Assembly: GCA_963697165.1 (NCBI GenBank) | Contig: CAVOMX010000014.1 | Span: 49,862 to 81,861 of the forward strand | Direction of reading: 5' to 3' | Origin: Candidatus Bathyarchaeota archaeon | GTDB taxonomy: Archaea > Thermoproteota > Bathyarchaeia > Bathyarchaeales > Bathyarchaeaceae | Length of the DNA stretch: 32,000 nucleotides | Shown here: positions 1 through 32,000 of the stretch, piece by piece | How the letters are laid out: the number at the start of each line of letters is the position of its first letter | Numbering within the stretch: the stretch's first letter is position 1 | The notes under the pieces: model-generated | What the model saw: only the letters and a program-made list of their open reading frames with translations | Databases searched by the model: none | What the model was told of the DNA's origin: nothing | Translations under genes and position numbers: made by a program

Positions 1-124
1 ACAAACTGACTATAGAGAGTAAGGTGAGAATCAAGGCGGCGGTTTTCGCAGATTTTTTGCCAACACCATACACTATTGGAATAGCCAGAGCGGGCAACAT
101 CAGAGCAATTAATAATGTTTGCAT
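1..124 (-). CDS. Antiporter-like membrane subunit (NuoM/NuoN / HyfD-F family). Only the first 41 codons are present and the gene continues past the window start.
   Basis: Hand translation of the reverse complement from ATG at 124 gives MQTLLIALMLPALAIPIVYGVGKKSAKTAALILTLLSIVSL. This is a hydrophobic TM1 typical of the subunit that follows NuoL. It starts 7 nt after the stop of the NuoL C-terminal fragment. Confidence 0.45.
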   Translation of the reverse strand, partial: MQTLLIALMLPALAIPIVYGVGKKSAKTAALILTLLSIVSL

Positions 125-131
125 TTTTGTT

Positions 132-338
132 TTACCTCAAAGCAGTTAATAATAGCAAAATAATGATTAGGAAGAAGCCGAGCATGGCTGCCAAAACAAA
201 GTCAGGTAGTGGTCCACGGTGCATCTTCTTGATTTTCTGTCCGTGCTCAACCGTTTTTCCTGCAAACAGATAGACCAGATTATCCAAGAATGAATCAATA
301 TATTCATGGGTTACCCGCGCAGTCTCCACTGGTTCCAC
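132..338 (-). CDS. nuoL: C-terminal fragment of the NuoL-like subunit (last lateral-helix repeat plus terminal TM helix). It is +1 out of frame with 304..2172.
   Basis: The sequence VETARVTHEYIDSFLDNLVYLFAGKT repeats the 26-aa unit seen twice at the end of ORF 304..2172. It is followed by the hydrophobic tail PDFVLAAMLGFFLIIILLLLTAL. The ORF overlaps the upstream ORF by 35 nt. Confidence 0.6.
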   Translation of the reverse strand: MEPVETARVTHEYIDSFLDNLVYLFAGKTVEHGQKIKKMHRGPLPDFVLAAMLGFFLIIILLLLTALR

Positions 339-465
339 CCGCCAAAATATAGCTTAAGCGGTCTAGGAAAGATTCAAGGTGCACATGTGTGTTGTGAGCA
401 GTAATCACGGCTCCACCAGCTATGATATAAACGAACCTGTCAAGAAATGATTCTATGTAATCGTG
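231..465 (-). repeat. Three tandem 78-bp (26-codon) coding repeats forming the NuoL lateral-helix region. More degenerate copies extend to about 606.
   Basis: The protein units are HDYIESFLDRFVYIIAGGAVITAHNT, HVHLESFLDRLSYILAGG.. and HEYIDSFLDNLVYLFAGKTVEHGQKI. The DNA copies have diverged, so the repeat is clear only at the amino-acid level. Confidence 0.7.
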
Positions 466-2172
466 AGTACCATGGGCAATCCTCAAAGCCCCGCCTGCAA
501 CAAGATAAGGAAATTGTTGCAACCCAGACATTTCAATGATACTGTATGTAACCTGCGCCAAACCCATGACTCCATTCAATAGTTTATTGTAAACGGCATC
601 GAAGTAATAGCCGTTGGATATTAAAAGATAAAGCGGTTTGTTTAAAAAACTTCTTGCAGAAACCATGGCAGTATCTCTCTTCTTGTAGTAAAGATAGTAG
701 GCTGTAGATAAGCCAACAGCGAGGATTATAGCTGATGTTAAACTCGCCAAAATGACGCCATTGAATGAAGCTTCAAAGGGTATCGCAAGGTAATGCTCTA
801 AGGGAGTCTTGAAGAAACCTGCGATACAGGAGGCAGCGGCTAACAGGACAAGGGGTACAGTTATTGTTGGTTTAGGATCATGCAATTGATGGTGCTCAAG
901 ATGCTCTGATTTCTTTCCGAGGAAAACCAGAGATATCCATCTAATACTGTAGATGGCTGTTAACACAGATGTTCCGAAAATCAAAATGAAAAGTGGAATG
1001 TTATTAGCTAAGATTATGGCTTCGAATATAGTGTCTTTGCTCCAGAAACCGCTGAAAGGCGGAATACCGGCAAGCGAAAACGCGCCGATAACACTCACTA
1101 TGAAGGTTATAGGCATCTCTTTTCTTATGCCTCCAAGCTGTTTCAGATCAAGAGTGTGAGTAATATGCATTACAACTCCAGCACAAAGGAACAAAAGCGA
1201 CTTGAAGAGGGCGTGGCTGAGTACGTGGAATTGACTAGCGAACCAGCCTAGTTCAGTTCCTATGCCTAGGGCGGCCATTATCATGCCCAACTGGCTTATT
1301 GTAGAAAATGCTAGAACCCGTTTCAGGTCTGAGCTGGTCAATGCCATGGTTGCTGCAAGGAAAGCCGTGATTCCTCCGATGTATGTAATTGTGGTTAACC
1401 ATGGCTGCACCAAAGAGAAGAGAATGTAGATTCTTGCCACAAGATAGATTCCCGCTTTAACCATTGTTGCACCATGGATGAGGGCACTAGTCGGTGTTGG
1501 TCCTTCCATGGCGTTCGGAAGCCAAACATGTAATGGAAATTGGGCAGATTTGCCTATAGCCCCAATCAACATCAAAACGGACACTGCTAACATTGGAACT
1601 GAAACTTGCCCAGCTGCTATAAGATCGCGGATTTCAAGAAAGTCGAATGTTCCAGTGTTCACGTATAGAAGCAGTATTCCGAGTAGTAGAAAAATGTCTC
1701 CGATTCTTGTTACGATGAAGGCTTTCATGCCTGCCTTGGCTGATTCAGGTCTAGTGTACCAGAATCCGATGAGGGCATATGAGCATAATCCAACGGTTTC
1801 CCAGAACATGTACATCTGTAGAAGATTGTTTGCCATAACTAAGCCAATCATTCCACCGACGAAAAGAAGCATGAAGAAAAAGAATCTGGGAGTTCCTTTT
1901 TCTTTTTCCATATAGTTAACGGAGTAAATCATGATTAGCAGTCCAACACAGGCTGCAATGTTTGCCATCATGATGCTTAACGGGTCGATGAGGACGCTAA
2001 GGTTGATTTTCATGGATTGCATCCAAGGCATAGAATACAGTTGCGCTTCGCCATGAGCGTTGATTACGCTGGGAATAAGCGAGACAGTGTTAACAGCAGA
2101 AACAAGAGTGACTAAAACTGCGTACCAGCCAACGCTTCTACGCCGAAACTTGGCTACCAAAGGTATAAACAA
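304..2172 (-). CDS. nuoL: NuoL/HyfB/MrpA-like proton-antiporter subunit (main body). The C-terminus is interrupted by a frameshift and the N-terminus is probably longer than the TTG call.
   Basis: 622 aa and polytopic, with family-typical stretches WETVGLCSYALIGFWY, AGMKAFIVTRIGD, SAQFPLHVWLPNAMEGPTPTSALIHGATMVKAG and SQLG. It sits after the NuoK-like gene. Confidence 0.85.
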   Translation of the reverse strand: MFIPLVAKFRRRSVGWYAVLVTLVSAVNTVSLIPSVINAHGEAQLYSMPWMQSMKINLSVLIDPLSIMMANIAACVGLLIMIYSVNYMEKEKGTPRFFFFMLLFVGGMIGLVMANNLLQMYMFWETVGLCSYALIGFWYTRPESAKAGMKAFIVTRIGDIFLLLGILLLYVNTGTFDFLEIRDLIAAGQVSVPMLAVSVLMLIGAIGKSAQFPLHVWLPNAMEGPTPTSALIHGATMVKAGIYLVARIYILFSLVQPWLTTITYIGGITAFLAATMALTSSDLKRVLAFSTISQLGMIMAALGIGTELGWFASQFHVLSHALFKSLLFLCAGVVMHITHTLDLKQLGGIRKEMPITFIVSVIGAFSLAGIPPFSGFWSKDTIFEAIILANNIPLFILIFGTSVLTAIYSIRWISLVFLGKKSEHLEHHQLHDPKPTITVPLVLLAAASCIAGFFKTPLEHYLAIPFEASFNGVILASLTSAIILAVGLSTAYYLYYKKRDTAMVSARSFLNKPLYLLISNGYYFDAVYNKLLNGVMGLAQVTYSIIEMSGLQQFPYLVAGGALRIAHGTHDYIESFLDRFVYIIAGGAVITAHNTHVHLESFLDRLSYILAGGTSGDCAGNP

Positions 2173-2233
2173 TGATCCGACAAATGGAATTGCCCAACAT
2201 AGCCAGGCTGCGTACTCGGCTGGAATCAGAATG

Positions 2234-2563
2234 CTAGTTTTCCTCCACCATTTGGTTTTCTTGTTCAGATGGCTGTTCTTTTATTTCCGACAGTTCTCTG
2301 ACATCACGGATATTTAGTTTTTTGTAGATAGAAATAGCAAGTGTAAGAGCAACAGCCGTTACACAGGCGTCAACAGATAAGGCAAGAATCGAGAAAGTTT
2401 GACCTAAAGGATCCCCCATTAATGAGCCAAAAACAACAAAATTCATTGTTGCTGCCGCAGTAAGCATTTCTATTGCGATCAGCATTTTTATCAAGTCATG
2501 CTTTGTAACCAAGCCGACTATTCCAATCGCTAGAATTGTAACAGCCAGTATTATGTAATCCAC
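2234..2563 (-). CDS. nuoK: NuoK/HyfE-like small membrane subunit with an acidic C-terminal tail
   Basis: 109 aa with three TM segments and a membrane-embedded Glu (IAIEMLTAA). Size and position between the J-like and L-like genes fit. Confidence 0.8.
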   Translation of the reverse strand: MDYIILAVTILAIGIVGLVTKHDLIKMLIAIEMLTAAATMNFVVFGSLMGDPLGQTFSILALSVDACVTAVALTLAISIYKKLNIRDVRELSEIKEQPSEQENQMVEEN

Positions 2564-2564
2564 T

Positions 2565-3044
2565 TTAGTTTCTCCTCCGTTCCTCCTTCAAAAGGAGCAC
2601 TACGCCAAGCGCAGCCGTCAAAACGACTAAACCTTGAGCAAGAACATCAATCGCCCTCAAGTCCCATAATGCACTTGATAGTGACAAATCCAATGAGCTA
2701 GTAAAAGTTTGGGTTGCCACAGTTCCAACAACTACTGGAACAGAAAGAATTGCAGAAACAATTAAACCCATGAATATCGTTTTGGTGGATGTTTTCGTGT
2801 CGCTTTTCTTGGTTAACGAATCACCAGCAAGAAGAAAAATCGCTGCAGTTCCAGTGCCTAACGCCAACTGGAAGATTGCAGCGAAAGGCGCATTTAAGCT
2901 AAAGTAGAGCAATGAAAGCAATATCATCATTGTGCTTAGAGACAAAACCGAAGACACGGTTTCCTTCAAGTATATCGCAAAAACCGCAGAGGTCACCATA
3001 CCAATAGCCAGAACTGTTTCAAGCCACATACTATTTTCCCTCAT
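2565..3044 (-). CDS. nuoJ: NuoJ-like membrane subunit
   Basis: 159 aa, multi-TM, positioned between the I-like and K-like genes. It overlaps the upstream gene by 14 nt. The assignment rests mostly on synteny and topology. Confidence 0.65.
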   Translation of the reverse strand: MRENSMWLETVLAIGMVTSAVFAIYLKETVSSVLSLSTMMILLSLLYFSLNAPFAAIFQLALGTGTAAIFLLAGDSLTKKSDTKTSTKTIFMGLIVSAILSVPVVVGTVATQTFTSSLDLSLSSALWDLRAIDVLAQGLVVLTAALGVVLLLKEERRRN

Positions 3045-3426
3045 CTGTAGTAGATTTTTGTTTAATAATAAATTCCTCTGGATTTATCAGCATCTCTTCC
3101 TTTTCTGTTGTTGACATCTCAAAATTTGTGGATAGCTTTATTGCCTCTCTTGGGCAGCTTTCCGCGCATTGATAACAAAATACGCAGCGGTCAAGGTAAA
3201 ACTTTGGCATCCGTTTCCCAGAAACTTCCACAAGTTCTATAGCATTAGCGGGACAGTCCCGCTCGCATAAGCCGCAGCTGATGCACTTTTCAGGATAGAA
3301 AACGTGCCTGCCTCGGTAGCCTTCAGGAGCTTCTACCTTTACAGCGGGATACTCACGAGTGAAGGACTTCTTGAAGATACATGAGCCCATGTCTTTTATC
3401 AGTGATGGTAATCGTAGTTTAGTCAC
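3031..3426 (-). CDS. nuoI: NuoI/HycF-like 2x[4Fe-4S] ferredoxin subunit
   Basis: It has two CxxCxxCxxxCP motifs: CISCGLCERDCP and CVFCYQCAESCP. Confidence 0.85.
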   Translation of the reverse strand: MTKLRLPSLIKDMGSCIFKKSFTREYPAVKVEAPEGYRGRHVFYPEKCISCGLCERDCPANAIELVEVSGKRMPKFYLDRCVFCYQCAESCPREAIKLSTNFEMSTTEKEEMLINPEEFIIKQKSTTDEGK

Positions 3427-3437
3427 ACTTTTTCCTC

Positions 3438-4430
3438 CTAACCAATCACCGACCGCAACAACGGTTCAATAATTATTGTAATAGCAAGAGATAAAATAGA
3501 CAAGGGAATCATAAATTTCCAGTTGCCATGAACAACCTGATCTATCCGTAATCTGGCAGACACATTACCGACATACTCTAGAACAAACACTACTCCAAGT
3601 GTTTTAACCATGAACCAGAAAGCATACCAGAGTTCAGGTGGTCCAATCAGCACGGGTCCATGAGCTCCACCTAAGAACAACATAGTTACAAGAGATGCAC
3701 CAACCAGGAACTGAAAATCTTCTGCAAGTTTTATAAAAGCCAATTTTCTTCCACTGAACTCCGTTTCGTAACCTCCCACAATTTCGGTTTCTGCATGAGG
3801 AATATCGAAAGGATCCTTCTCTAACTCAGCCTGTAAGACAATAATAAACAAGAAACAAGACCAAGGAATCAGAAGAGCAAAAGGAATAGATTGGCTCGCC
3901 GTAATATTCACAATGGACAAGCTTTTTGCAAGAAAAGCGGGACCAATCGCGAGAAGAATAAGAGGTATGTCGTATCCGAGAAACTGGGTCAGAACTCTGG
4001 TTGCGCCAATCCCGCTGTACGGATTCAAAGAAGCCCAACCGGCAAGGAATATAGCAAAGTTTGCGAGAGATACAATAAGCAAAACTAGAAGCAAATCTCC
4101 CTCGAAACTCGAATTCAAAATCACATTTGAACCATCGATCGGGATATAGAAAAGACCAAAAACATAGAGTGAAAACGCAAGAATTGGAGCTGCCACAAAT
4201 AGCAGTTTGTTGGTATTCTTTGGAGTAATATCTTCATTCGAGAACAGTTTTATGTAATCGGCAATGGGTTGAAGAATACCAAATGGACCGGCATAAGAGG
4301 GACCCATACGGTTCTGAAACCGAGCTGCAACCTTTCTTTCAAACCAGTCAAAAAATAGAACTAGCACCAAGAGAAAGATGAAACCCGGAAACACCAGTGC
4401 CCTTACAATAAAAAGGAGATCAATAGCCAT
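3438..4430 (-). CDS. nuoH: NuoH/HycD-like membrane subunit
   Basis: 330 aa and polytopic, with family-typical stretches RKVAARFQNRMGPSYAGPFGILQPIADYIKLF and DIPHAETEIVGGYETEFSG. Confidence 0.85.
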   Translation of the reverse strand: MAIDLLFIVRALVFPGFIFLLVLVLFFDWFERKVAARFQNRMGPSYAGPFGILQPIADYIKLFSNEDITPKNTNKLLFVAAPILAFSLYVFGLFYIPIDGSNVILNSSFEGDLLLVLLIVSLANFAIFLAGWASLNPYSGIGATRVLTQFLGYDIPLILLAIGPAFLAKSLSIVNITASQSIPFALLIPWSCFLFIIVLQAELEKDPFDIPHAETEIVGGYETEFSGRKLAFIKLAEDFQFLVGASLVTMLFLGGAHGPVLIGPPELWYAFWFMVKTLGVVFVLEYVGNVSARLRIDQVVHGNWKFMIPLSILSLAITIIIEPLLRSVIG

Positions 4431-6104
4431 CTAGATCAACGCCTTCCGGTTTATAGAATTGTTTACGTCGTCAAGGCTCCAATGCCATTTCTGACCATTT
4501 TTGGTATCAATGAATGCCATACGGTCAGTGCAAGAAAAGCATGGGTCTAAGCTTCCCATCACAGAGGGAATATCAGCGATGTGGGCACCCCTAATTGCAT
4601 CTGGAAATGCCATAAGGTTAGCTAAGGTTGGAGCTCTGACCTTAACTCTGTAAGGATAGGCGGTTCCATCACTTTTAACATAATGGATAAGCTCGCCTCT
4701 CGGAGCCTCAACACGGCTAACAGCCTCACCTTCAGGTATTTTTCGTTGAACCCTAACCCGCAAACGACCCCCTGGAATGTGACGAAGCGCATATTCTAGT
4801 ATATCCAAGCTTTCCAGTACTTCTTCAGCTCGAACCATCAGCCGAGCCCATGTGTCACACTCCTTATAGCTCACTACATTGAAAGGAATTTCCCCATACG
4901 CCGCGTAAGGGTCATCTTTTCTGACATCAACAGCAATTCCTGACCCACGTGCAACAGGACCAACAACACATAATTTCAAAGCATCTGCTCTGTTCAATAC
5001 GCCGACCCCTTCGGTTCTCATCCTCAATGTCGGGTCTTCATCGAATACCTTCTTGTAGAAAGTCGCCCGTTTCCTGACATCTTTGACTGTCTTCAGAGTC
5101 TTCTCAATTGTACTTGGGTCTATATCTCGTCTTACTCCGCCGATTGTGTTGAACCCGCACATCAGTCGGTTTCCCGTGATTCGTTCGATTATATCCATTA
5201 CAGGTTCTCTGTCACGCCACACATGCTGGAATAGTGCTTCAAAACCAAGCAGGTGACCGCCAACTCCAAGCAATAGGAGGTGACTATGAACTCTGTTTAG
5301 CTCATGTATAATAGTACGTAAGTATAATGCACGAGGCGGAGTCTCAATGTTTCCGATGTCCTCAACAGCTTGACAGAAGACAGTTGTGTGAGCAGCATTA
5401 CAGATACCACAAATTCTCTCCACCAAAAACACGTCTTGGAAGTACATCATGCGCTCAGCCGCTTTCTCAATACCCCTATGAACATATCCAAGACGCGGCT
5501 CAACATCCACAACCGTTTCCCCATCAACTTTGAAGTTGAATCTTTCTGGCTCATGCAAAACTGGATGCTGAGGCCCTACAACGACGTTAATTATCGACCC
5601 AGAATCATCTTCCGCTGATTCAGTCTGCGAAGCTTTCTCAGAACTGAAAGCAATTTCTTGGTTAACCGGAGGCTTCCAATCTTTTCTAAGAGGATAATTT
5701 CCTTGAGGCCAATTCTCAGGAAGCAACAACCTTTCCAGATTTGGATGACCCTCAAAAGCGACTCCTAAGAGGTCAAAGACTTCCCGCTCATACAAATTTG
5801 CTCCGGGCAGGATGTCAGTAATCGTTTGGGTAACAGGGTTTTCTCGAGAAACACGGTTCTTGAGGGTTATGGTTCCCGCACAAGCCATGTGATAGTTTAA
5901 CTCGATCTCGTTTCCTAAATCAACGCCACTTATTGTCGAAAGCTCCACGTCCTCAACTTGTGTTAGGAGCAACGAGATTGCATCTCTGTGACGTTCAGGT
6001 TTAAGAAGAATGTAGGCTTTCCTTGGCCTAGGGACTCTACACTCGAGAATCGAATCAGCCAAATTATTCTTGAGAACTTCTACAGCATTTTCGAACGTGT
6101 TCAT
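4431..6104 (-). CDS. Fused NuoC-like domain plus group-4 [NiFe]-hydrogenase large subunit (HycE/NuoCD architecture). The Ni-Fe ligand motifs are intact.
   Basis: The N-terminal half shows the NuoC signature (LYEREVFDLLGVAFEGHPNLERLLLP...YPLRKDW). The L1 motif RICGICNAAH lies at nt 5388-5417 and the L2 motif DPCFSCTDR at nt 4521-4547; I re-translated both from the DNA. A 29-aa extension follows the Arg. Confidence 0.85.
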   Translation of the reverse strand: MNTFENAVEVLKNNLADSILECRVPRPRKAYILLKPERHRDAISLLLTQVEDVELSTISGVDLGNEIELNYHMACAGTITLKNRVSRENPVTQTITDILPGANLYEREVFDLLGVAFEGHPNLERLLLPENWPQGNYPLRKDWKPPVNQEIAFSSEKASQTESAEDDSGSIINVVVGPQHPVLHEPERFNFKVDGETVVDVEPRLGYVHRGIEKAAERMMYFQDVFLVERICGICNAAHTTVFCQAVEDIGNIETPPRALYLRTIIHELNRVHSHLLLLGVGGHLLGFEALFQHVWRDREPVMDIIERITGNRLMCGFNTIGGVRRDIDPSTIEKTLKTVKDVRKRATFYKKVFDEDPTLRMRTEGVGVLNRADALKLCVVGPVARGSGIAVDVRKDDPYAAYGEIPFNVVSYKECDTWARLMVRAEEVLESLDILEYALRHIPGGRLRVRVQRKIPEGEAVSRVEAPRGELIHYVKSDGTAYPYRVKVRAPTLANLMAFPDAIRGAHIADIPSVMGSLDPCFSCTDRMAFIDTKNGQKWHWSLDDVNNSINRKALI

Positions 6105-6110
6105 AGTTTG

Positions 6111-6524
6111 CTATCCCTTCAATTTTCCAAGTAATTTCGCGACACCCTGCACTATTGCTTCGGGTTTTGGAGGACACCCCGGAATATAAACATCAACAGG
6201 AATTATCTCATCGAGACGCTTACTCACACCGTAACATCCTTGAAATATTCCTCCGGAACAGGCGCAGGCTCCTATTGCTAGAACAAATTTTGGTGAGGGC
6301 ATTTGCTGATAAATCATCTCGAGTCGTGGTGCACACTGCTTAGTAACAACTCCGGTTACCACAAGAACGTCTGCATGACGAGGTGAGGGCTCAAGTTTCA
6401 CACCGAAACGTTCAACATCGTATCTGGGCGTCAGCAGCGCAACAACTTCAATATCGCATCCATTGCATGCTCCGGTATTGAAGTGAAGCAGCCATGGCGA
6501 GTTTATTCTAGCCCATTTCACCAA
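6111..6524 (-). CDS. NuoB/HycG-like [4Fe-4S] small subunit (hydrogenase-type cysteine pattern)
   Basis: 137 aa with TGACNGCDIE, AIGACACSGG and IPGCPPKPE, the cysteine pattern of group-4 hydrogenase small subunits. Confidence 0.85.
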   Translation of the reverse strand: MVKWARINSPWLLHFNTGACNGCDIEVVALLTPRYDVERFGVKLEPSPRHADVLVVTGVVTKQCAPRLEMIYQQMPSPKFVLAIGACACSGGIFQGCYGVSKRLDEIIPVDVYIPGCPPKPEAIVQGVAKLLGKLKG

Positions 6525-6541
6525 GCCTAAGTCTGGCGTCT

Positions 6542-6865
6542 TTAGTAGCCTCCCATAAGCAGTAGGTCTGCTGCTAAAATTATACCCAAATAAATTAACA
6601 AAGAGAAGGGGTTGATAATCTCTAGAGCTAAGGCTGCAAAAGCCAATATCAACGCAGGGGAGTCTATTATAACAAAGAATATGAGGTACTTATAGAGAGT
6701 AACATTAACCAACAGCCTTTTTGAGAACACTTTTTCTCCACATGCATACATTGCGCTTTTTTCTTCGTTAGCAGGAGATTTTTTTGTTAACAAGCCGCTG
6801 GACAAGTAAATCAATGAAGCAATGAACAAGATAATTAGAAAAGCAACAAGAGACTCTACAAGCAA
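6542..6865 (-). CDS. nuoA: NuoA-like three-TM subunit (divergent), first gene of the operon
   Basis: 107 aa with three TM helices. The loop motif YACGE matches NuoA YECG, and FFVIIDSP matches the NuoA FLLFDVE region. It has a TTG start and is preceded by 520 bp of AT-rich non-coding DNA. Confidence 0.5.
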   Translation of the reverse strand: MLVESLVAFLIILFIASLIYLSSGLLTKKSPANEEKSAMYACGEKVFSKRLLVNVTLYKYLIFFVIIDSPALILAFAALALEIINPFSLLIYLGIILAADLLLMGGY

Positions 6866-9229: not shown

Positions 9230-9529
9230 TTAGATTATTACGGTTCTACGGATTTTGAAGCCATCAAACACTCCAGTGTATTCTTCCCATTTTATATCTA
9301 TCTTCAAAACTCGGGCGCCTGAAGGTCCAAGTCCACAAAAATCAATCAGCTGCTCCACATCTCCTTTCTCCCCCTCAAAGATTGCTTCCACTCTACCATC
9401 AGATGCGTTTCGAACCCAACCTGCAACGCTTCTTTTCAGAGCCTCACAGCGAGTTTCCACCCTAAAGAATACTCCTTGAACCATACCGCTTACAAAGATA
9501 TGGGCTCTAACATTCATGTTTCTCATCAA
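9230..9529 (-). CDS. acyP: Acylphosphatase
   Basis: VSGMVQGVFFRVETRCEALKRSVAGWVRNASDGRVEAIFEG matches the V.G.VQGVxFR and GWVRN acylphosphatase signatures. The protein is about 95 aa. Confidence 0.85.
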   Translation of the reverse strand: MMRNMNVRAHIFVSGMVQGVFFRVETRCEALKRSVAGWVRNASDGRVEAIFEGEKGDVEQLIDFCGLGPSGARVLKIDIKWEEYTGVFDGFKIRRTVII

Positions 9530-13321: not shown

Positions 13322-13756
13322 CTATTCTGTTTTAAAGTGTTCCCATCCTCGAGCGTCTACAGAAACAGTTTTTTCACCTGTTTTTAGCAGACATTGTTTC
13401 TCTTTGGTAACTATTCCAATCTGTGTGAGATTTCCTCCCACTGATTCCACAGCTTTTTTTGCTTCCTGCCAAAGACTTGGTTTAATTGTTACAACAAGCT
13501 CATATTCCTCTCCGCCATACAAAGCTAACTCCGCAGAATCAAAACCATGAATATCCGCAAACATTTCCACTTCATGAGCTATAGGAAGATTGTTAATACA
13601 AAAGCCCACGTTACTCGCTTTAGAAAGCTCATGAAGACTCCACGCTAAGCCATCGCTAGAGTCTATGGAGGCAGTTGCGACCTGCGATTGAGCCAAAGCT
13701 ATTCCTTCATTGACCCTTGCATTGGGCATGAGGACAGACTCAACAAGCACTCCCAT
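13322..13756 (-). CDS. thiL: ThiL C-terminal fragment
   Basis: PNARVNEGIAL....ASIDSSDGLAWSLHELSKASNVGF matches the ThiL C-terminal domain (P.pR..g..l...a.iDiSDGL). This frame stays open upstream through ...EDGLSAPDIMGVL. The two fragments together total 328 aa, a normal ThiL length. Confidence 0.8.
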   Translation of the reverse strand: MGVLVESVLMPNARVNEGIALAQSQVATASIDSSDGLAWSLHELSKASNVGFCINNLPIAHEVEMFADIHGFDSAELALYGGEEYELVVTIKPSLWQEAKKAVESVGGNLTQIGIVTKEKQCLLKTGEKTVSVDARGWEHFKTE

Positions 13757-14310
13757 TATATCAGGAGCTGAAAGCCCATCTTCAGAATCTTCAATCCAGA
13801 GGTTGTTTTTCCGAAATAACCAGTTACTGCAATGTAATCTCCGGCTTTTGCGCCACTACGCTTTATCAAGTGATGCCTGTTGCATACTCCTAAGGCGGTG
13901 CAACTTATTATTAACTCAGAGGCTTCGTTTGTGTCGCCTCCCAGTATGTATGTGTCGTATTCGCGGGCGCCAGCATTTAGTCCCTTGCTCATCTGTTGTA
14001 TGTCCGTTTCTGTAAAGTTTGGAGGTACTCCGATAGAGGCCAATAGAGCTAGAGGCTTTGCTCCCTTTGCTGCTAGATCACTTATGTTCATTACTACTGC
14101 TTTGCGGGCGGCTTGCCAGAGGCTCATGGTTCGCGGAACATCTGTTTTTCTGACGAGCATATCAATGTTTATTACTGCAATTTTGTCGTGTCCCATGTCT
14201 ATTGCTGAGGCGTCGTCTCCGAATGGAAGTGGCGTATTGGGCATCTGGTCCAGGCAATCTAGAATGAGTTTTATGATTTTTCTTTCGCCCAGATCCTTGG
14301 CTGAACTCAA
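13756..14310 (-). CDS. thiL: Thiamine-monophosphate kinase ThiL, N-terminal fragment (the gene is split by a -1 frame change)
   Basis: GERKIIKLI..FGDDASAIDMG..VINIDMLV, AVVMNISDLAAKGAKP, ILGGDTN and GAKAGDYIAVTGYFG form the classical ThiL/AIR-synthase-related pattern. The ORF stops where the family normally continues. Confidence 0.8.
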   Translation of the reverse strand: MSSAKDLGERKIIKLILDCLDQMPNTPLPFGDDASAIDMGHDKIAVINIDMLVRKTDVPRTMSLWQAARKAVVMNISDLAAKGAKPLALLASIGVPPNFTETDIQQMSKGLNAGAREYDTYILGGDTNEASELIISCTALGVCNRHHLIKRSGAKAGDYIAVTGYFGKTTSGLKILKMGFQLLI

Positions 14311-25373: not shown

Positions 25374-26168
25374 GTGAACCAAATACTAGATGGTGCTCGA
25401 ATTATCATATGTCTAAGTTTCTTGTTTTACGCTTCTTGGAGCGACTACAAAACCAGAGAAGTAAGTAACAAAGTTTGGATCATCTTAGGACCATTAGCCC
25501 TAGCACTAACAGGGTTTCAGTTTTTAGTATATTCAGCCCAACCGCTTCAACTTGTAACAACCTACGTCCTATCTTTTGCAATAACTTCAGGTTTAGCCAT
25601 AGCCGTCTTCTACGCTGGAGGCTTCGGAGGAGCAGACGCAAAAGCTTTCATGTGCATCGCTCTTGCTTTACCTGTTTATCCTGACTATCTTCTTCCACAA
25701 CCCCCGGGTTTTGTTTCCCCTCTTTTTCCAATAACAATCTTCACCAACAGTGTTCTATTAGGTGCCCTCAGCGTGTTCTACGCTCTCTTCCGAAATCTTC
25801 TATGGATAGTTAGAAACAGAGGAAACGTCTTTGAAGGCTTGAAAACAGAGTCTTTTGGGCACAAAATTCTGGCACTTATAAGCGGCTACAAGGTCAAAAT
25901 GGCTAAACTAGAAAAGGGACACATGTTTCCTCTTGAAGACGTTGAGCTGAAGGATGATGGTGAGAAAAAGAGAAAGTTGCTAGCGTTTCCGAAATATGAG
26001 GAGCGCGAAGATATTATTGCAAGAATCCGAGAAAACGTAACAGATGAAAAACGTGAAGTATGGGTTACCCCGGGTTTGCCTCTCCTCATCTTTATCACAG
26101 CAGGTTTAATCATTGCTTTGGCTTACGGAGACATTGTGTGGGTCCTGCTCGGATCACTCATCACCTAA
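25374..26168 (+). CDS. Prepilin/preflagellin peptidase (A24 family, FlaK/PibD-like)
   Basis: It is polytopic, with a first catalytic Asp region SWSDYKTREV and a second motif GGFGGADAKAF. A soluble insert lies before the last TM segments, as in FlaK. Confidence 0.85.
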   Translation: MNQILDGARIIICLSFLFYASWSDYKTREVSNKVWIILGPLALALTGFQFLVYSAQPLQLVTTYVLSFAITSGLAIAVFYAGGFGGADAKAFMCIALALPVYPDYLLPQPPGFVSPLFPITIFTNSVLLGALSVFYALFRNLLWIVRNRGNVFEGLKTESFGHKILALISGYKVKMAKLEKGHMFPLEDVELKDDGEKKRKLLAFPKYEEREDIIARIRENVTDEKREVWVTPGLPLLIFITAGLIIALAYGDIVWVLLGSLIT

Positions 26169-26569: not shown

Positions 26570-28498
26570 TCAGTCTACTGTAACACTTGGGGGATATTCC
26601 ACCATCACCCAAAGACCATTGGATCCAGAGCTTGGGTAGATCGGCTCACCATTAAAGGTTACGACTGCGCCATACCAAGTCACATCCAAAGGATCTTTAA
26701 AGGGAGATACTGAAATTTGTTCCACTGGATTAAACTCGATACGTGAAGCAGTTACGTTTAGAGCTCCTGTTTTGTCGTCCACGATAGAATCGAAAGTGTA
26801 AAGTTTCTGGTTATATAAGTCAGTGAACATTAGCCCTGCTCCCGAGTTTCCTGAACTGACTTGGCTCCAATGATGATCCCAACCTGTTGGTGAACCGTCA
26901 TAGAAGAGAACTGTGGAACTGGAAGTTTCAGGGTAGACTCCATCGGTTCCGTCTTCTGTTAGTGGCGTTCCACTGAGACCTGAAATTTGGATGGCGCTAA
27001 GATCAGAAACGATCCTGCTCTGGGAGGAGTTTACGAAAATTGTTCTTGCTGCATAGGTATAATATGGTGTGTTTGCCGGTAATGTCAAAAAGACCTGTGA
27101 ATAAAAGTTAGGACTACCTGCAACTCCGCCACTGTATTCTGGTTCTTGTTGAATTATGTCTCTGACTACGCCGTTGTAGATTACATACGCAGGTTGTGCC
27201 CCGTACGTAGGCAGTTCATCATTGACACGTAGAAAATCCGCTCTATAGCTAGTTGAGTTGCCTAAAACACGTGAAACTACATAGAAATTATTTATGTCTA
27301 GTCTTAGAAATCCGTTTCGTAAAATTCCAGAAGACGGATTGTCATTGAAGTAAACGTTTTCCCAAGCATAGGACGTCTGGATTGCTCTGTCGTTCCCATC
27401 CCACCATAACGTAACCTCGCTAATAGCATTATTAACTAAAAATACTAACATTCTATTGTTGTTGAGTAGGCTATTGTTTCCAGCAAGTCCAAGAGGTATC
27501 TGGTAGGAAGATGCCCAATTTTCCACTTGGAAAGGCACCTCTTGGTTAACACCATTGATGGTTGCGTTAACATGAAGACCTTTGACTGAAATTGGAGGAA
27601 TCGGTTTCGTCTGAGGGGTTAGTTCCAGATTTTGGCCAAGCCATCTTAAAGTGCCGTTTTGGAGAAGCTCAATAACCATTGTATCCGTGGACAAAGACTC
27701 ATAAATTGTTTGCATGCCATTAACGTTCCAGTTAAAAGTGTAAGTGTAATGGGGAATTCCTGAGCTAACAGAGTTTTGTGAATAAAAAGCGGTTACTATT
27801 ATACCTCTATTGTCTTCAACTTGAACCGAGTATGCATCTTGGTCTACTCCTGAAGGAATTGTTAGGGTATAAACTCCGTTAGAAGAGATTATAAGGTTAG
27901 TTGGATTGACTAGCTCCCAAGTTGAGTCATCATAGTTGTATTTGTAGAACCAGAAGTTTTCTTCGCTTAATCCTAGTTCAGGCTCGGTATTATCACGAAT
28001 GACCTTGATTTGGGCTACACCAGAACCTGAGGATAGCATTGTGACTTTCAGGGCTGAAGATGTTTCATATGTTACTCCCTCGATTCCGAGACTCCCCAAT
28101 GAATAAGTTAGTGAAATGTTTCCCACACTGTAGCTCTCAGGCATATACCAACGGGTGGAGACTTGGTCAAAACTGAGTGAGAAGGATGGGTTCCATTCAG
28201 GATGCGAATGCGCAATATGGACAAGCCCGCTCGAAAGATAACTGTCAGTGAGGCTCTGGGCGTATGTTGAGTTACCGGTAACTTTCAGTATTGAACCGTA
28301 ATATCCAACTGTATGATCCAATATTCGTTTGATATCCGCATTCATTTCTCCCATAGCTGTTAGGACTGTGGGTGAGTTCTGTATCGGAGCGTAGCGGACC
28401 ATACTATAAGTGGATATAACTGCAGTTACTAGAATCACAGATACAAGTAACGCCGCGATTATGGAGAACTGCCCCTTATTCGCTCTACTACCCTTCAT
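26570..28498 (-). CDS. Large pilin-like protein (642 aa) with a canonical class III signal peptide
   Basis: MKGSRANKG|QFSIIAALLVSVILVTAVISTY is the signal region. The remainder is Ser/Thr/Asn/Tyr-rich and beta-like, with many N-x-S/T sequons. Confidence 0.75.
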   Translation of the reverse strand: MKGSRANKGQFSIIAALLVSVILVTAVISTYSMVRYAPIQNSPTVLTAMGEMNADIKRILDHTVGYYGSILKVTGNSTYAQSLTDSYLSSGLVHIAHSHPEWNPSFSLSFDQVSTRWYMPESYSVGNISLTYSLGSLGIEGVTYETSSALKVTMLSSGSGVAQIKVIRDNTEPELGLSEENFWFYKYNYDDSTWELVNPTNLIISSNGVYTLTIPSGVDQDAYSVQVEDNRGIIVTAFYSQNSVSSGIPHYTYTFNWNVNGMQTIYESLSTDTMVIELLQNGTLRWLGQNLELTPQTKPIPPISVKGLHVNATINGVNQEVPFQVENWASSYQIPLGLAGNNSLLNNNRMLVFLVNNAISEVTLWWDGNDRAIQTSYAWENVYFNDNPSSGILRNGFLRLDINNFYVVSRVLGNSTSYRADFLRVNDELPTYGAQPAYVIYNGVVRDIIQQEPEYSGGVAGSPNFYSQVFLTLPANTPYYTYAARTIFVNSSQSRIVSDLSAIQISGLSGTPLTEDGTDGVYPETSSSTVLFYDGSPTGWDHHWSQVSSGNSGAGLMFTDLYNQKLYTFDSIVDDKTGALNVTASRIEFNPVEQISVSPFKDPLDVTWYGAVVTFNGEPIYPSSGSNGLWVMVEYPPSVTVD

Positions 28499-28501
28499 GA
28501 A

Positions 28502-29827
28502 TTATGTTCCTCCTTGCTGACCTAGTTGGAGGGTGACAAGTCTTGAAGTGCCATCCGCTCCGAACTCTGATTGATAGATGGTGGGTCTGAAGTGCATTAA
28601 GAGAGCCAAGCCGGTGATCCTTATGTCAGGAATCCTTGTTAGCCCGATTGCAGTGAAAGCTCCACCTCGTTGGTGAGTGAAAGTTGCGCCTGCAATCCAT
28701 CCTGGGGATACAGTTTCGAAAACATAGTCGTTTGGTTGAACAGTGAGGTTGTATGTATTCAGGATTGAGTCTGGAAGGGCTCGGGTGGCTGTTTGGTATG
28801 GAGAAGGAAATATCCCATAATAATTTGAACTCTCATATGCGTAGGAACTGAATTGTACTACTCCCCCTCCTGGTGGTGTTCCGGCAATTCCGCTATCACT
28901 GAAGCTAGTTGGTGGTGGATTTTGGTATTCGTGATCTAAACCTTCCAGAAACGCATTGAGCCCTGACTGTCCTACCATCATCATACCATAGATTCCCCAT
29001 GTGTTGTCGCTCCCTGAGAATTTTACAGTGTTAGTAACGTAATACAAAGGGTAACCTACGATGCTGACGTATGTCCAATTGTATTGGTTTATTTTTTGTC
29101 CTAGAACATAGCAATATTGTGCATATGAATCAGCAGAATAAAGGTCTGCATAAGCTGAAGGAATTGGAATAGCCTCACCACATGTGTTGATTATAACTCC
29201 ATTTTCCAAAGTCTCACCAACTAAGGGTGTTCCATCTAGTAGGTTTCCAAACTGAGCGGTAGAGTTCACGAGAATAGTTGTGCTAAAATATGGAGAGAGA
29301 AGATGGTAGAGGTCTAATGCAAGGGTTTGCAGGGAGTATCCTGTAATCCACCATCCGTTTGCGTCATTGCAGTTCAGGATATACAGCGTGATGTTTTGTC
29401 CTGTGCTTTCTCCCACTTTTTGTGAATCTTGGGCGAATGTAACATCGGGTGATGCCACCATTAATGATGCAGCCTCAGAATCTGCTCCGAAACTTGCATC
29501 TGATTTCGATGTTGCTAATTGATATGTTACAACTTCATCAGTGTCTGAAAGAATGTCATAAACTGTAAGGTTATACACTACGTTGGGTGGAAGAGAAGCT
29601 GAAAGAGCTTTTTGCAGGTCACTCCATGCAACATCAGATGAGTCTTTGAAAACTGTCTCACTTAAAATACCCTTTTCATCCAAAGTTTCAAGAGTTGATT
29701 GAGAAAGCCCTCGCAGATTAGTTCCGAAAGCTTGGCGTGGCGTAGGCAAAACAGCAAAATATGATGTGATAACGAAGGCTCCAAGTAGGATTACGATTAC
29801 GAATAGCACTTCAACAGTTCTCATCAA
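28502..29827 (-). CDS. Large N-terminally anchored pilin-like protein (441 aa)
   Basis: The N-terminus is MMRTVEVLFVIVILLGAFVITSYFAV, with T-V-E next to the hydrophobic helix. The extracellular-type composition includes sequons. The gene starts 13 nt after the upstream stop. Confidence 0.65.
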   Translation of the reverse strand: MMRTVEVLFVIVILLGAFVITSYFAVLPTPRQAFGTNLRGLSQSTLETLDEKGILSETVFKDSSDVAWSDLQKALSASLPPNVVYNLTVYDILSDTDEVVTYQLATSKSDASFGADSEAASLMVASPDVTFAQDSQKVGESTGQNITLYILNCNDANGWWITGYSLQTLALDLYHLLSPYFSTTILVNSTAQFGNLLDGTPLVGETLENGVIINTCGEAIPIPSAYADLYSADSYAQYCYVLGQKINQYNWTYVSIVGYPLYYVTNTVKFSGSDNTWGIYGMMMVGQSGLNAFLEGLDHEYQNPPPTSFSDSGIAGTPPGGGVVQFSSYAYESSNYYGIFPSPYQTATRALPDSILNTYNLTVQPNDYVFETVSPGWIAGATFTHQRGGAFTAIGLTRIPDIRITGLALLMHFRPTIYQSEFGADGTSRLVTLQLGQQGGT

Positions 29828-29840
29828 CGCTCATCACCAC

Positions 29841-31061
29841 CTAATTGTCCAATTTCCATGTAGAAACCTTCACATTATATGATAAACCGTCGATAGTGAC
29901 CGCCCTAAGTTCAGTAGCAACAAAATTGTGACCACTAGAATCAAGACCTTCACTAAAGGAAGTTGATGCTCCAAGGACTCCAAGACCCCAGGGCATCGAA
30001 ACACTTCCTAGTTTATTATTCCACCTATATGTAATGAATAGAAATCCTACTTCAGAAGCGGGAATTTGTGTAGTTTCAAAATCTTTAGAGCCATAATTTA
30101 GGTGACCTGTAGAATTATCTACCACAACCTGCTCTAACTGAAAGTCGGGAGTCAAAACATAAAAGGTGGCGTTATAATTAACGCTCGGCACTGGATTTTG
30201 TGTATACTCGTGAACACCCCAGCTATGGGCAATCATAATTATTCCTTCATTGTAGTCTTTAATCAGCGGTACAACATATTCAGGATAATCACCAATATCA
30301 TCCTGAGAATAATATCCTACACCAGTAAGCCCACTTAGACGAGCATATACCATGAACTGGTATGCATCATCCTCATCATCAATATCCTCAAATTCTAGTA
30401 GAACTGAACCTAACGAGTCAGTTTGACTAACTCCCGAATAAGGGACAATTGTAGAAGTAGAACCTCCTCCCTTGTCGACTTGAAAAAGATAATAATTCAA
30501 GGTTGCACCACTCAAAGGATATCCTGACCCACTTACATCAACTTCAAGAGCAAGATGACCAAAACCCAGAACCTTTGAAATGCTAACGTTCACAATTGGC
30601 CTAATATCCAAACTGAAGCCATATGTCCCATTTATCCCCAGCAACTTCGAAGCCGTGGAGTAGTTTATACAATCACCCAGGGGAGTTAGTATCGAATTTC
30701 CAAAGTTTGCAGTAATATTGTTATAGAAATTACCAGAGTCAGGAGGGTATTCAACAAGTTGGCTACCAGTAGAATCAACTCTCAATCGCATCATCGAATA
30801 CGGACTAAGAGAATATCCACCAGCCACAGGATCTTGAAGACCAAAACCTAAAACAGAACTGTTTGTTGCCCCCCAATCTACAGGACTTCCAGGAGACAGA
30901 CATATTGTATTCATTATATCTACGGCTTTTGTGGCAACTTGAGTGTTGGTTTCATAAGCAACTGCGCTGCTGAACATCTGATTGAAGCTGGTCATGGCAA
31001 AAAGCAATGCAGCTATAAGAATTATAAGTGATACCATGTGGTCTATTGTAGCTCCAGCCAT
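29841..31061 (-). CDS. Large N-terminally anchored pilin-like protein (406 aa)
   Basis: The N-terminus is MAG|ATIDHMVSLIILIAALLFAM. GGAGG lies 8 nt upstream of the ATG, and the gene overlaps the upstream gene by 19 nt. Confidence 0.65.
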   Translation of the reverse strand: MAGATIDHMVSLIILIAALLFAMTSFNQMFSSAVAYETNTQVATKAVDIMNTICLSPGSPVDWGATNSSVLGFGLQDPVAGGYSLSPYSMMRLRVDSTGSQLVEYPPDSGNFYNNITANFGNSILTPLGDCINYSTASKLLGINGTYGFSLDIRPIVNVSISKVLGFGHLALEVDVSGSGYPLSGATLNYYLFQVDKGGGSTSTIVPYSGVSQTDSLGSVLLEFEDIDDEDDAYQFMVYARLSGLTGVGYYSQDDIGDYPEYVVPLIKDYNEGIIMIAHSWGVHEYTQNPVPSVNYNATFYVLTPDFQLEQVVVDNSTGHLNYGSKDFETTQIPASEVGFLFITYRWNNKLGSVSMPWGLGVLGASTSFSEGLDSSGHNFVATELRAVTIDGLSYNVKVSTWKLDN

Positions 31062-31543
31062 TTAATTAACCTCCAAAAGAAAAAATAAGAGGTACTGTTA
31101 GAAAATTTTTGGACATTAATTGAAGCACCAGCAGAATTGCTCCTAAGAGTCGAATCTATCCATTCAACATTAGGACCAAGCAAAGCCGACGCCGACAAAG
31201 TGTTACCTAATTCATCCAATGTTATTGTGACAATGAGAATCTTAACCGACCCGGGTTCGGAGATGCTACTTAACGACGCCGTGGCTGTGTAAGGATAAGA
31301 AGCAACAGTTACTGGAAGTGTTGAAGCTTGATTAACGTTTCCCGCCAATATTTCATCCCGATTTACTGTCAGATAAAGCTGCTGAATAGTACTCGCTAAA
31401 TGGTTTGCTACATCCTGCAAAGCAACATCCCTTTGAGAATCCTGCCAACTGGAGGTCATTGTACTCGCCACAAAAGGAAACACTATCACCTGACTGAAAA
31501 GCAAAGGAATCAAAATCACATACTCAATCGTAACACTTACCAT
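31043..31543 (-). CDS. TadE/Flp-like pseudopilin-type protein (166 aa)
   Basis: The N-terminus MVSVTIEYVILIPLLFSQVIVFPFV resembles the (A/T)-(I/V)-E-(Y/F)-hydrophobic motif of Flp/TadE-type pilins. The C-terminal residues YFFFWRLIKWLELQ, read across a T-run, may be a read-through artefact. Confidence 0.6.
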   Translation of the reverse strand: MVSVTIEYVILIPLLFSQVIVFPFVASTMTSSWQDSQRDVALQDVANHLASTIQQLYLTVNRDEILAGNVNQASTLPVTVASYPYTATASLSSISEPGSVKILIVTITLDELGNTLSASALLGPNVEWIDSTLRSNSAGASINVQKFSNSTSYFFFWRLIKWLELQ

Positions 31544-31571
31544 CTATGAACTATCTCCTGTTTTGTTGTTT

Positions 31572-32000
31572 CTAGTAATTAATTCCAAATCCAACTGACA
31601 CCTCGCTTAAGTAAAGCTCCAAAACCACATTGTCGAACCCGGAAGTTGGAACTGGAATATCCTCAGAATCAAAGGGAAAATTGAAGAATGTGGAATTGAA
31701 ATTCTCGGGTGAATCTTCTCGAGGAAAATCAACACTAACAGTTATGCCTGTAACGCTGTCTATAGTGTTGGCCGTGAAAGAGTCCCCAGTTAAAGTAAGG
31801 GATTGAGAAAATCTTGGCGATTCTCCTGCACTAAGAACCGGGAGGTACATTCTAACATAGTATGTTGAACCTAAAGAAGTGTTAATGGAAGAATAAAGAA
31901 CTCTAACTGCCGGGGCTACAACCACTCGTATGTAACTTCCGTCAGCCATAGGCAACTTTTCAACAGCAAACACGCGGGCGACCGGAGCAGAAGTACCCTT
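31572..32000 (-). CDS. Hypothetical secreted/pilus-associated protein, 5'-partial (the frame is open to the window edge)
   Basis: My translation of 31974-32000 (KGTSAPVAR) is in frame with the track ORF, so the GTG at 31973 is probably not the real start. The gene lies 28 nt upstream of the next operon gene. Confidence 0.55.
   Translation of the reverse strand, partial: KGTSAPVARVFAVEKLPMADGSYIRVVVAPAVRVLYSSINTSLGSTYYVRMYLPVLSAGESPRFSQSLTLTGDSFTANTIDSVTGITVSVDFPREDSPENFNSTFFNFPFDSEDIPVPTSGFDNVVLELYLSEVSVGFGINY

Follow-up and report, generated by a model that had tools for sequence, protein, structure and literature searches.

Can the catalytic head of a [NiFe]-hydrogenase be carried by a complete membrane arm of the complex I type and, if so, is such a combination new? 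The question is raised by a 32,000-nucleotide (nt) stretch of DNA from a Candidatus (Ca.) Bathyarchaeota assembly (contig CAVOMX010000014.1, positions 49,862 to 81,861; the whole stretch is referred to as the window), the minus strand of which carries, between positions 1 and 6865, nine co-directional genes that were recognised from the list of open reading frames (ORFs) and their translations as homologues of nuoA-B-CD-H-I-J-K-L-M. The analysis indicates that this locus is very likely the Bathyarchaeum-lineage form of Hfo, the Fpo/Nuo-like 11-subunit membrane-bound group-4 (HydDB 4g) [NiFe]-hydrogenase of Bathyarchaeia, and the comparisons of predicted proteins described below support its description as a hydrogenase head on a complete complex-I-type membrane arm that lacks an NADH input module. 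The combination is not new. Hfo was defined by Loh, Hervé & Brune in 2021 (PMC7886697) as the 'Fpo-like 11-subunit hydrogenase', assigned to HydDB subgroup 4g (their 4g-6) and to the Bathyarchaeia subgroup Bathy-6, with a fused hfoCD, retained L1 and L2 motifs, and Nuo/Fpo synteny. A preliminary description of the window had assumed that no described group-4 hydrogenase has such a gene order and subunit set; this premise fell with the 2021 report, as did the claim of novelty, since the operon type is already classified as a known group-4 subtype (Hfo, 4g). The window thus adds an instance of a published operon type and not a discovery.

The nine genes are nearly gap-free, with intergenic distances from -14 nt (an overlap) to +17 nt, and Pfam assigned every hfo subunit to its expected Nuo family, J being slightly below the cut-off (32.2 versus 33.2 bits); the arrangement proposed in the preliminary description was therefore confirmed by ORFs and Pfam alike. 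They constitute nine of the ten genes (encoding eleven subunits) of an operon that is complete in relatives, in which N follows M both in L003 (98–99% identical to the window; L-numbers denote related loci) and in 12 other loci. Inspection of these relatives beyond coordinate 1 of the window, as had been proposed, brings the antiporter-like genes to three, namely L, M and N, and the proposed search for the same synteny in related archaeal genomes was likewise successful, with examples in Bathyarchaeia relatives including Ca. Bathyarchaeum tardum. Genes for NuoE/F/G, Hyp maturation proteins or a maturation endopeptidase are absent from the 32-kb window, as first reported, the sole AIRS-domain gene being thiL. 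NuoEFG and FpoO are also absent from the flanks of relatives, where an FrhB/FpoF-like gene with a CBS pair adjoins the cluster, while fdhF, hycB and cooS were found neither in the window nor in those flanks. Furthermore, the MbhA-G/Mrp small-subunit families have no Pfam match in the window except for a weak MbhD-like match inside J.

For the fused CD subunit (HfoCD), recomputation returned the L1 and L2 motifs and the 29-amino-acid (aa) tail of the 557-aa protein at the positions originally given. Alignment placed L1 (RICGICNAAH) against RVCGICGFAH of HycE (7z0s_E) and RMCGICSFSH of MbhL (6cfw_L), and L2 (DPCFSCTDR) against DPCYSCTDR and DPCLSCTDR of the same two proteins, in each case with high posterior probability. 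The four cysteines are thereby predicted to lie at the L1/L2 ligand positions, as the preliminary description had anticipated, whereas Aquifex NuoCD carries DYIS ('drmdyisaicn') and DPVVGETDR ('sldpvvgetdr') at these sites and has no Ni-Fe cysteines. Among 27 homologues of 79–91% identity, C232, C235, C522, C525 and their flanking residues are invariant; the four cysteines persist in homologues of 53–64% identity; and C-C-C-C occupies the ligand columns in 103 of the approximately 150 sequences of an alignment made up of full-length 50%-cluster representatives, related loci and three solved references. The invariance in the 27 homologues and the count of 103 sequences together place the ligand motifs beyond chance.

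Comparison of HfoCD with all PDB sequences (phmmer) ranked HycE (330 bits) and MbhL (274 bits) above all NuoD chains of complex I, among which Aquifex NuoCD (258 bits), Escherichia coli NuoCD (229 bits) and T. thermophilus Nqo4 (220 bits) scored highest. Additionally, HfoCD falls below all NCBIfam NuoD and FpoD cut-offs (NuoD 353 versus 360, FpoD 326 versus 600). The best solved match of the small subunit, HfoB, is MbhJ (6cfw_J, 176 bits), followed by HycG (135 bits) and NDUFS7 of complex I (approximately 134 bits), and its CNGC, GAC and GCPP cysteines align with those of MbhJ and HycG and are the predicted ligands of a single proximal [4Fe-4S] cluster. The hydrogenase-type cysteine set that had been ascribed to HfoB is upheld to this extent; of the 'CxC' pair included in that set, the first cysteine alone is at a ligand position.

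The 29-aa tail that follows L2 contains three residues (M529, F531 and W540) that are invariant in Bathyarchaeum-type relatives, and a tail is also present in the 64%-identical L022 protein. In the L025/L026 type of Hfo, conversely, the tail is missing and CD ends with ...CTDR (L025:13377-14837, L026:13316-14893). By analogy with HycE, we infer that the tail would be cleaved by a maturation protease; its presence in one type and absence from the other implies different maturation requirements inside one enzyme family.

The subunits of the membrane arm rank in the opposite direction. HfoH scored 161 bits against Nqo8 and 147 bits against E. coli NuoH, compared with 88 bits for MbhM and 45 bits for HycD, while HfoL, for which the near-identical L002 copy was used in the PDB alignment, scored 374 bits against NdhF and 329 bits against NuoL, compared with 194 bits for MbhH and 93 bits for HycC. 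These opposite rankings, with the head nearest to HycE, MbhL and MbhJ and the H and L subunits nearest to complex I and NDH, make 'hydrogenase head on complex-I arm' a fair description in quantitative terms, as put forward in the preliminary description. L and M also score above the cut-offs of the NCBIfam subfamilies NuoL and NuoM (for L, NDH_I_L at 514 versus 407 bits). HfoL keeps the charged motifs 'FWETVG', 'GKSAQFPLHVWLP', 'ALIHGATMV', 'HALFKSLLF' and 'FWSKD' of NuoL, which we take to represent key NuoL residues; the NdhF alignment covers four of the five, HALFKSLLF falling in an alignment gap where it is visible in the query line only.

Two features of HfoL were observed in addition. Its presumed lateral helix contains three tandem 26-aa repeats (AGGxxxxAHxTHxYIESFLDRxVYIx; positions 264-498 of the minus strand, residues ~555-632), after which one terminal transmembrane (TM) helix follows. 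Repeats 1 and 2 are identical at 15 of 26 residues by hand count, and the repeats are shared by Bathyarchaeum-type relatives and missing from the L025/L026 type; at the DNA level, no tandem repeat was detected at the 3' end of hfoL, the repeats being visible in the protein only. At the other end of the protein, the conserved N-terminus starts at an ATT (2230-2232, minus strand) in the window, L002 and L003, and at ATG, GTG or TTG in nine other relatives. The hfoL start is thus either a near-cognate ATT or a TTG located 20 codons downstream, the latter with loss of a conserved segment.

The closest named proteins are from Ca. Bathyarchaeum or Bathyarchaeia, with thousands of close homologues, and the window also encodes the archaeal markers Alba and eIF-1A; the source organism belongs to the Bathyarchaeia and is a close relative of Ca. 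Bathyarchaeum. A search for exact matches to the CD protein of the window returned no contig, and relatives were used for the comparisons. When 1.84 billion 50%-cluster representatives were scanned exhaustively with HMMER, one sequence was at 65% identity to CD and all others were at or below approximately 51%. In a tree of about 150 sequences, the window CD groups with those of B. tardum, L022, P0241 and the L025/L026 type, all of which have the four cysteines, while Cys-less sequences (DSVE, DAVE and similar, together with Aquifex NuoCD2) form a separate clade and the HycE and MbhL groups are also separate. Within the limits of neighbour-joining, a crude distance method, the tree excludes a nesting of HfoCD inside Nuo/Fpo, and the check on the large subunit that had been called for accordingly placed CD in an all-Cys clade apart from the Nuo/Fpo-like one. 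The L1 motif of the L026 type, CGICNACH, is the motif published for Bathy-6 Hfo, and on this match the L026 type is taken as the putative Bathy-6 (termite) Hfo; the clade of the window is sister to the L025/L026 clade that carries the published motif. As a separate observation, L022 (CAYTTK010000009.1), which is binned as 'Pirellulales bacterium', holds a complete Hfo-type operon with a 64%-identical CD as well as the beginning of the FrhB-CBS gene. Misbinning of an archaeal contig is the probable explanation, and horizontal transfer a less likely one.

The published record on Hfo extends beyond its definition. Hfo-like clusters were reported in Pyrodictium delaneyi and Ca. Methanomethylicus, and Hfo was argued to be an evolutionary link to complex I that 'closes the evolutionary gap' (PMC7886697). 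The same study tabulated hyp genes for each metagenome-assembled genome, found no methanophenazine biosynthesis genes in Hfo-bearing genomes, described FpoF/O as absent, treated an FrhB homologue solely in the context of Hdr and left the source of F420H2 unexplained. Korarchaeial 4g clusters with Nuo-like L/M subunits have also been published. The Hfo concept was subsequently applied by Khomyakova et al. 2023 (PMC10477458) to B. tardum, with an A-N cluster at WGM88890-WGM88881. Some details of that genome (L011, CP122380) may be added. The motif figure of PMC10477458 depicts WGM88738 (CGICSHSH), a member of a second cluster (WGM88731-88739), and not the fused CD of the A-N cluster; the latter is WGM88888, annotated as NuoC, and carries CGICNAAH and DPCFSCTDR, so that the genome seems to hold two group-4-type large subunits. 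Similarly, NuoJ, reported as missing, is present at L011:13067-13543. The supplement of that paper lists no hyp genes and no HycI/A31 protease, a list that says nothing on genome content.

On the basis of these likenesses, Hfo is probably a ferredoxin-linked, ion-translocating hydrogenase. HfoI, the translation of which contains two CxxCxxCxxxCP motifs, is presumed to be where electrons enter from or leave for ferredoxin: a carrier of low potential, most probably ferredoxin, would exchange electrons with its two [4Fe-4S] clusters, and the electrons would pass via the single HfoB cluster to a Ni-Fe centre held by the four cysteines of HfoCD. There, in the place of the quinone-binding site of complex I, protons and H2 would be interconverted (2H+ + 2e- <-> H2). 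HfoH, A, J and K would couple the redox reaction to the antiporter-like subunits L, M and N, which the lateral C-terminal segment of L would hold together and which would move H+ or Na+ across the membrane. The direction would be set by physiology, as H2 evolution from reduced ferredoxin would build up a membrane potential, and in reverse the membrane potential would power the reduction of ferredoxin by H2, for use in the Wood-Ljungdahl pathway. The authors of PMC7886697 favour membrane-potential-driven electron flow from H2 to ferredoxin for acetogenesis, with the reverse being possible. It is only by analogy with Mbh, formate hydrogenlyase (FHL) and complex I that we infer that the site is loaded with metal and active on H2, and the same applies to the electron partner, the ion specificity, the stoichiometry and the direction.

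Several points weigh against this reading as a whole or in part. The energy span between ferredoxin and H2 is far below that between NADH and quinone, which makes an arm with three antiporter-like subunits energetically puzzling. The hyp and protease genes are, as stated above, absent from the window, and hfoL is interrupted in the assembly as it stands. An AlphaFold2 model of HfoCD, built on the 27-sequence alignment in which all members share at least 79% identity, had a mean pLDDT (predicted local distance difference test) of 45.9 and was too poor for ligand geometry; the ligand assignment consequently rests on sequence alignment to solved structures. The window CD shares 53% identity with its L026-type counterpart and thus represents a sister sublineage and not the exact published clade, and a literature search found no report of a purified or assayed Hfo-type enzyme. 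Finally, the gene that neighbours the operon in relatives raises the possibility that ferredoxin is not the sole partner, or not the partner at all.

This neighbour lies beyond coordinate 1 of the window and encodes a protein of approximately 500 aa, with an N-terminal 2x[4Fe-4S] Fer4 domain, FrhB_FdhB_N/C domains and a C-terminal CBS pair (FrhB-CBS). In 12 of 12 distinct Bathyarchaeum-type loci that reach that far, B. tardum included, it is situated directly 3' of hfoN on the same strand at a distance of 52–159 nt, and it is likewise 3' of hfoN in L028 and L029. In L025 and L026, which carry a more distant Hfo and an FrhB-CBS orthologue of about 60% identity, the gene is upstream of hfoA, with a gene for a DUF1622 membrane protein in between. 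Its closest solved homologue is 8RIU_B, the zeta subunit from the Ca. Ethanoperedens F420-reducing carbon monoxide dehydrogenase (CODH) (168 bits over residues 11-355), which is a plug-in F420 reductase anchored via its N-terminal ferredoxin domain and by which a normally ferredoxin-linked enzyme is redirected to F420 (PMC11493965). The protein also matches the NCBIfam FrhB and FpoF models, in both cases under the cut-off.

These observations lend some weight to an F420-coupled variant, in which the CBS-fused FrhB/FpoF-like reductase would dock on the peripheral arm by its 2x[4Fe-4S] domain and Hfo would perform ion-translocating H2/F420H2 interconversion, alone or beside ferredoxin, with the CBS pair tuning activity to adenine-nucleotide status; the 'missing FpoF' would then not be missing. 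In its favour are the constancy of the linkage, its survival of the rearrangement seen in L025 and L026, the likeness to an F420 reductase, the proposal that a frhB-flanked group-4 hydrogenase oxidises F420H2 in Methanonezhaarchaeia (PMC12700198) and the unexplained source of F420H2 in PMC7886697. Conversely, the gene is outside the window, its orthologues of about 60% identity are unlinked to Hfo in two of four contexts (L027, L031/L032), and the difference in potential between H2 and F420 is small (approximately 74 mV standard, with the F420 value from PMC10667645). The hfoN-frhB spacer, furthermore, contains a conserved CCAAAA(A)TTTTAACT that precedes the FrhB-CBS start by some 35-40 nt and has a GGAG/GGGG purine run after it (L001, L003, L009, L011-L015, L017-L019). 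This element, which does not recur in the window, looks like an archaeal BRE (B recognition element)/TATA promoter with a ribosome-binding site and suggests separate transcription. The F420-coupled variant is therefore put forward tentatively, as the less probable course of events. If true, Hfo would couple ion translocation to H2:F420 (or F420H2:H+) oxidoreduction within a complex I architecture, under the control of energy charge, and would supply the F420H2 needed by the archaeal Wood-Ljungdahl pathway of these organisms. A published link between the FrhB-CBS gene and Hfo in Bathyarchaeia was not found in the literature search.

In a second alternative, the complex has been inactivated in this particular strain. 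A 1-nt insertion at approximately nt 331 (GGAAC-C-AGTGG) splits hfoL into ORFs of 622 and 68 aa, so that the third lateral repeat and the terminal TM helix are lost; L002 and L003, two independent contigs 98.3–98.5% identical to the window, do not have the insertion and encode an uninterrupted HfoL of 675 aa. The catalytic core that 'looks intact' in the preliminary description is hence intact as regards its aligned and conserved motifs, but the operon as assembled is broken at hfoL. Loss of the last third of the lateral segment and of the C-terminal anchor could signify an operon in decay. However, thiL (thiamine-phosphate kinase; 13322-14310, minus strand), a single 307-aa gene in L002, is broken into two ORFs as well, here through loss of 1 nt at about 13782. 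This second frameshift, in an unrelated housekeeping gene and no more than 16 kb from the first, fits faulty assembly or sequencing better than selective decay. Moreover, the remaining Hfo genes are intact and 97–100% identical to the L002/L003 copies, and the codons past the shift are still conserved, HfoL residues 611-675 being 100% identical. Inactivation is consequently considered unlikely.

It is, lastly, highly improbable that the complex is no hydrogenase but an Fpo/Nuo-like respiratory or ferredoxin-oxidising complex with a membrane carrier or another acceptor, its four cysteines being left over without Ni-Fe: while the membrane arm and H are complex-I-like, NuoD is the top-scoring NCBIfam large-subunit match (though below its cut-off), public annotation reads NuoC or NuoD and hyp genes are absent from the window, this is opposed by the invariant R-x-C-G-x-C-x-x-x-H and D-P-C-x-x-C-x-x-R motifs and the retention of the cysteines in distant homologues, by the separate clade of Cys-less relatives, by the solved hydrogenases outscoring all complex I NuoD chains, by a small subunit with a hydrogenase-type CxxC, and by the lack of methanophenazine biosynthesis genes in Hfo-bearing genomes (PMC7886697).

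Of the known genetic links between energy-converting hydrogenases and complex I, Hfo is the closest, as it combines a Ni-Fe head with the full 11-subunit Nuo/Fpo set and order. Bathyarchaeia are among the most abundant archaea of anoxic sediments, and Hfo may balance H2, ferredoxin and membrane potential in their acetogenesis or fermentation. As this significance was already stated in 2021, the value that is left is a matter of biochemical characterisation and of the FrhB-CBS lead, the conserved neighbour suggesting an F420 connection that was apparently missed by published models.

The coordinates of the individual features are compiled in Table 1.

Table 1. Features of the hfo locus in the window, with examples of the FrhB-CBS gene in related loci.
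Feature	Position	Strand	Evidence or remark
hfoA, NuoA/FpoA-like membrane subunit, 107 aa, first gene of the operon	6542-6865	-	Pfam Oxidored_q4, E 4e-7; conserved in all relatives
hfoB, hydrogenase small subunit / NuoB-like, 137 aa	6111-6524	-	Pfam Oxidored_q6, E 6e-35
hfoCD, NuoC-like domain fused to group-4 [NiFe]-hydrogenase large subunit, 557 aa	4431-6104	-	Pfam Complex1_30kDa, NiFeSe_Hases, Complex1_49kDa
L1 Ni-Fe ligand motif RICGICNAAH (predicted), residues 230-239, Cys232 and Cys235	5388-5417	-	
L2 Ni-Fe ligand motif DPCFSCTDR (predicted), residues 520-528, Cys522 and Cys525	4521-4547	-	
hfoCD 29-aa C-terminal extension past the L2 arginine (MAFIDTKNGQKWHWSLDDVNNSINRKALI)	4434-4520	-	Candidate maturation-protease substrate
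hfoH, NuoH/Nqo8-like, 330 aa	3438-4430	-	Pfam NADHdh, E 3e-89
hfoI, NuoI-like 2x[4Fe-4S] ferredoxin subunit, 131 aa	3031-3426	-	Pfam Fer4 families; NCBIfam NuoI and HycF-like matches
hfoJ, NuoJ-like, 159 aa	2565-3044	-	Pfam Oxidored_q3, 32.2 bits; position kept in all relatives
hfoK, NuoK/4L-like, 109 aa	2234-2563	-	Pfam Oxidored_q2, E 1.5e-20
hfoL, NuoL-like antiporter subunit, long C-terminal lateral segment and terminal TM helix	135-2232	-	Pfam Proton_antipo_N, Proton_antipo_M
hfoM 5' end, NuoM-like, first 41 codons, runs off the window	1-124	-	100% identical to residues 1-41 of L003 M (489 aa)
FrhB-CBS gene, examples in related loci	L001:18984-20507; L003:10276-11781; L011:19050-20549; L025:10001-11509; L026:10001-11515		

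Elsewhere in the window, two candidates for maturation genes were considered and rejected: the AIRS/AIRS_C gene at 13322-14310 as hypE, which matches NCBIfam thiL at 266 bits (cut-off 184) versus hypE at 61 bits (cut-off 252), and a free-standing acylphosphatase at 9230-9529 as HypF, which is an ordinary acylphosphatase. A sigma-70 promoter and terminator scan upstream of hfoA was uninformative, sigma-70 being the wrong promoter type for an archaeon. An uncharacterised cluster of five co-directional ORFs (642, 441, 406, 166 and 133 aa) without a Pfam match at E <= 0.001 occupies positions 26570-31973 of the minus strand, and a gene for an archaeal type IV prepilin peptidase is located close to it at 25374-26168.

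Among known systems, the Bathy-6 Hfo of PMC7886697 shares with the window the organism class, the A-B-CD-H-I-J-K-L-M-N order, the fused CD, L1/L2 and the lack of NuoEFG, as well as the proposed role as an energy-converting hydrogenase and the proposed evolutionary link to complex I. The window differs from the L026 type, in which L1 reads as published for Bathy-6 (CGICNACH), by a CD of 53% identity and by its 29-aa tail, and the FrhB-CBS gene is upstream of A in the L025/L026 type, whereas it is downstream of N in relatives of the window type. The cluster of B. tardum strain M17C, from a different species, is orthologous to that of the window, with an 80%-identical CD and the same order, tail and downstream FrhB-CBS gene. 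The FrhB-flanked group-4 hydrogenase 'Ehi' of Methanonezhaarchaeia (PMC12700198) belongs to another class of Thermoproteota and is likened to Hfo by its description, which makes no mention of a CBS-pair fusion. Mbh of Pyrococcus furiosus (group 4d, 6CFW) is, as proposed for Hfo, of the ferredoxin-linked, ion-translocating group-4 type, and MbhL and MbhJ count among the top solved matches to HfoCD and HfoB; however, it has a Mrp-type Na+ module (MbhA-G) and the single antiporter-like MbhH, whereas Hfo has NuoA, J and K and three antiporter-like subunits with an L-type lateral segment, its H and L being much nearer to complex I than to MbhM and MbhH. The Hyc formate hydrogenlyase (group 4a, 7Z0S) resembles Hfo in that HycE has a fused NuoC-like N-terminal domain and a C-terminal extension past DPCxxCxxR, but its gene order differs, no formate dehydrogenase (FDH) or HycB is encoded in the window, and HycC and HycD are distant. 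Ech (4e), Hyc/Hyf (4a) and Coo (4c) are characterised by the six-subunit Ech set or by an association with FDH or CODH genes, neither of which matches the window. The Fpo-like/Nuo-like 11-subunit complexes (Methanomassiliicoccales, Methanothrix) and complex I, conversely, have an 11-subunit set and synteny identical to those of Hfo, and the Fpo-like forms similarly have no NADH module and a proposed ferredoxin-oxidising role; the D subunits of these complexes, however, have no Ni-Fe cysteines and reduce quinone, phenazine or an unknown acceptor, whereas HfoCD has the four aligned cysteines.

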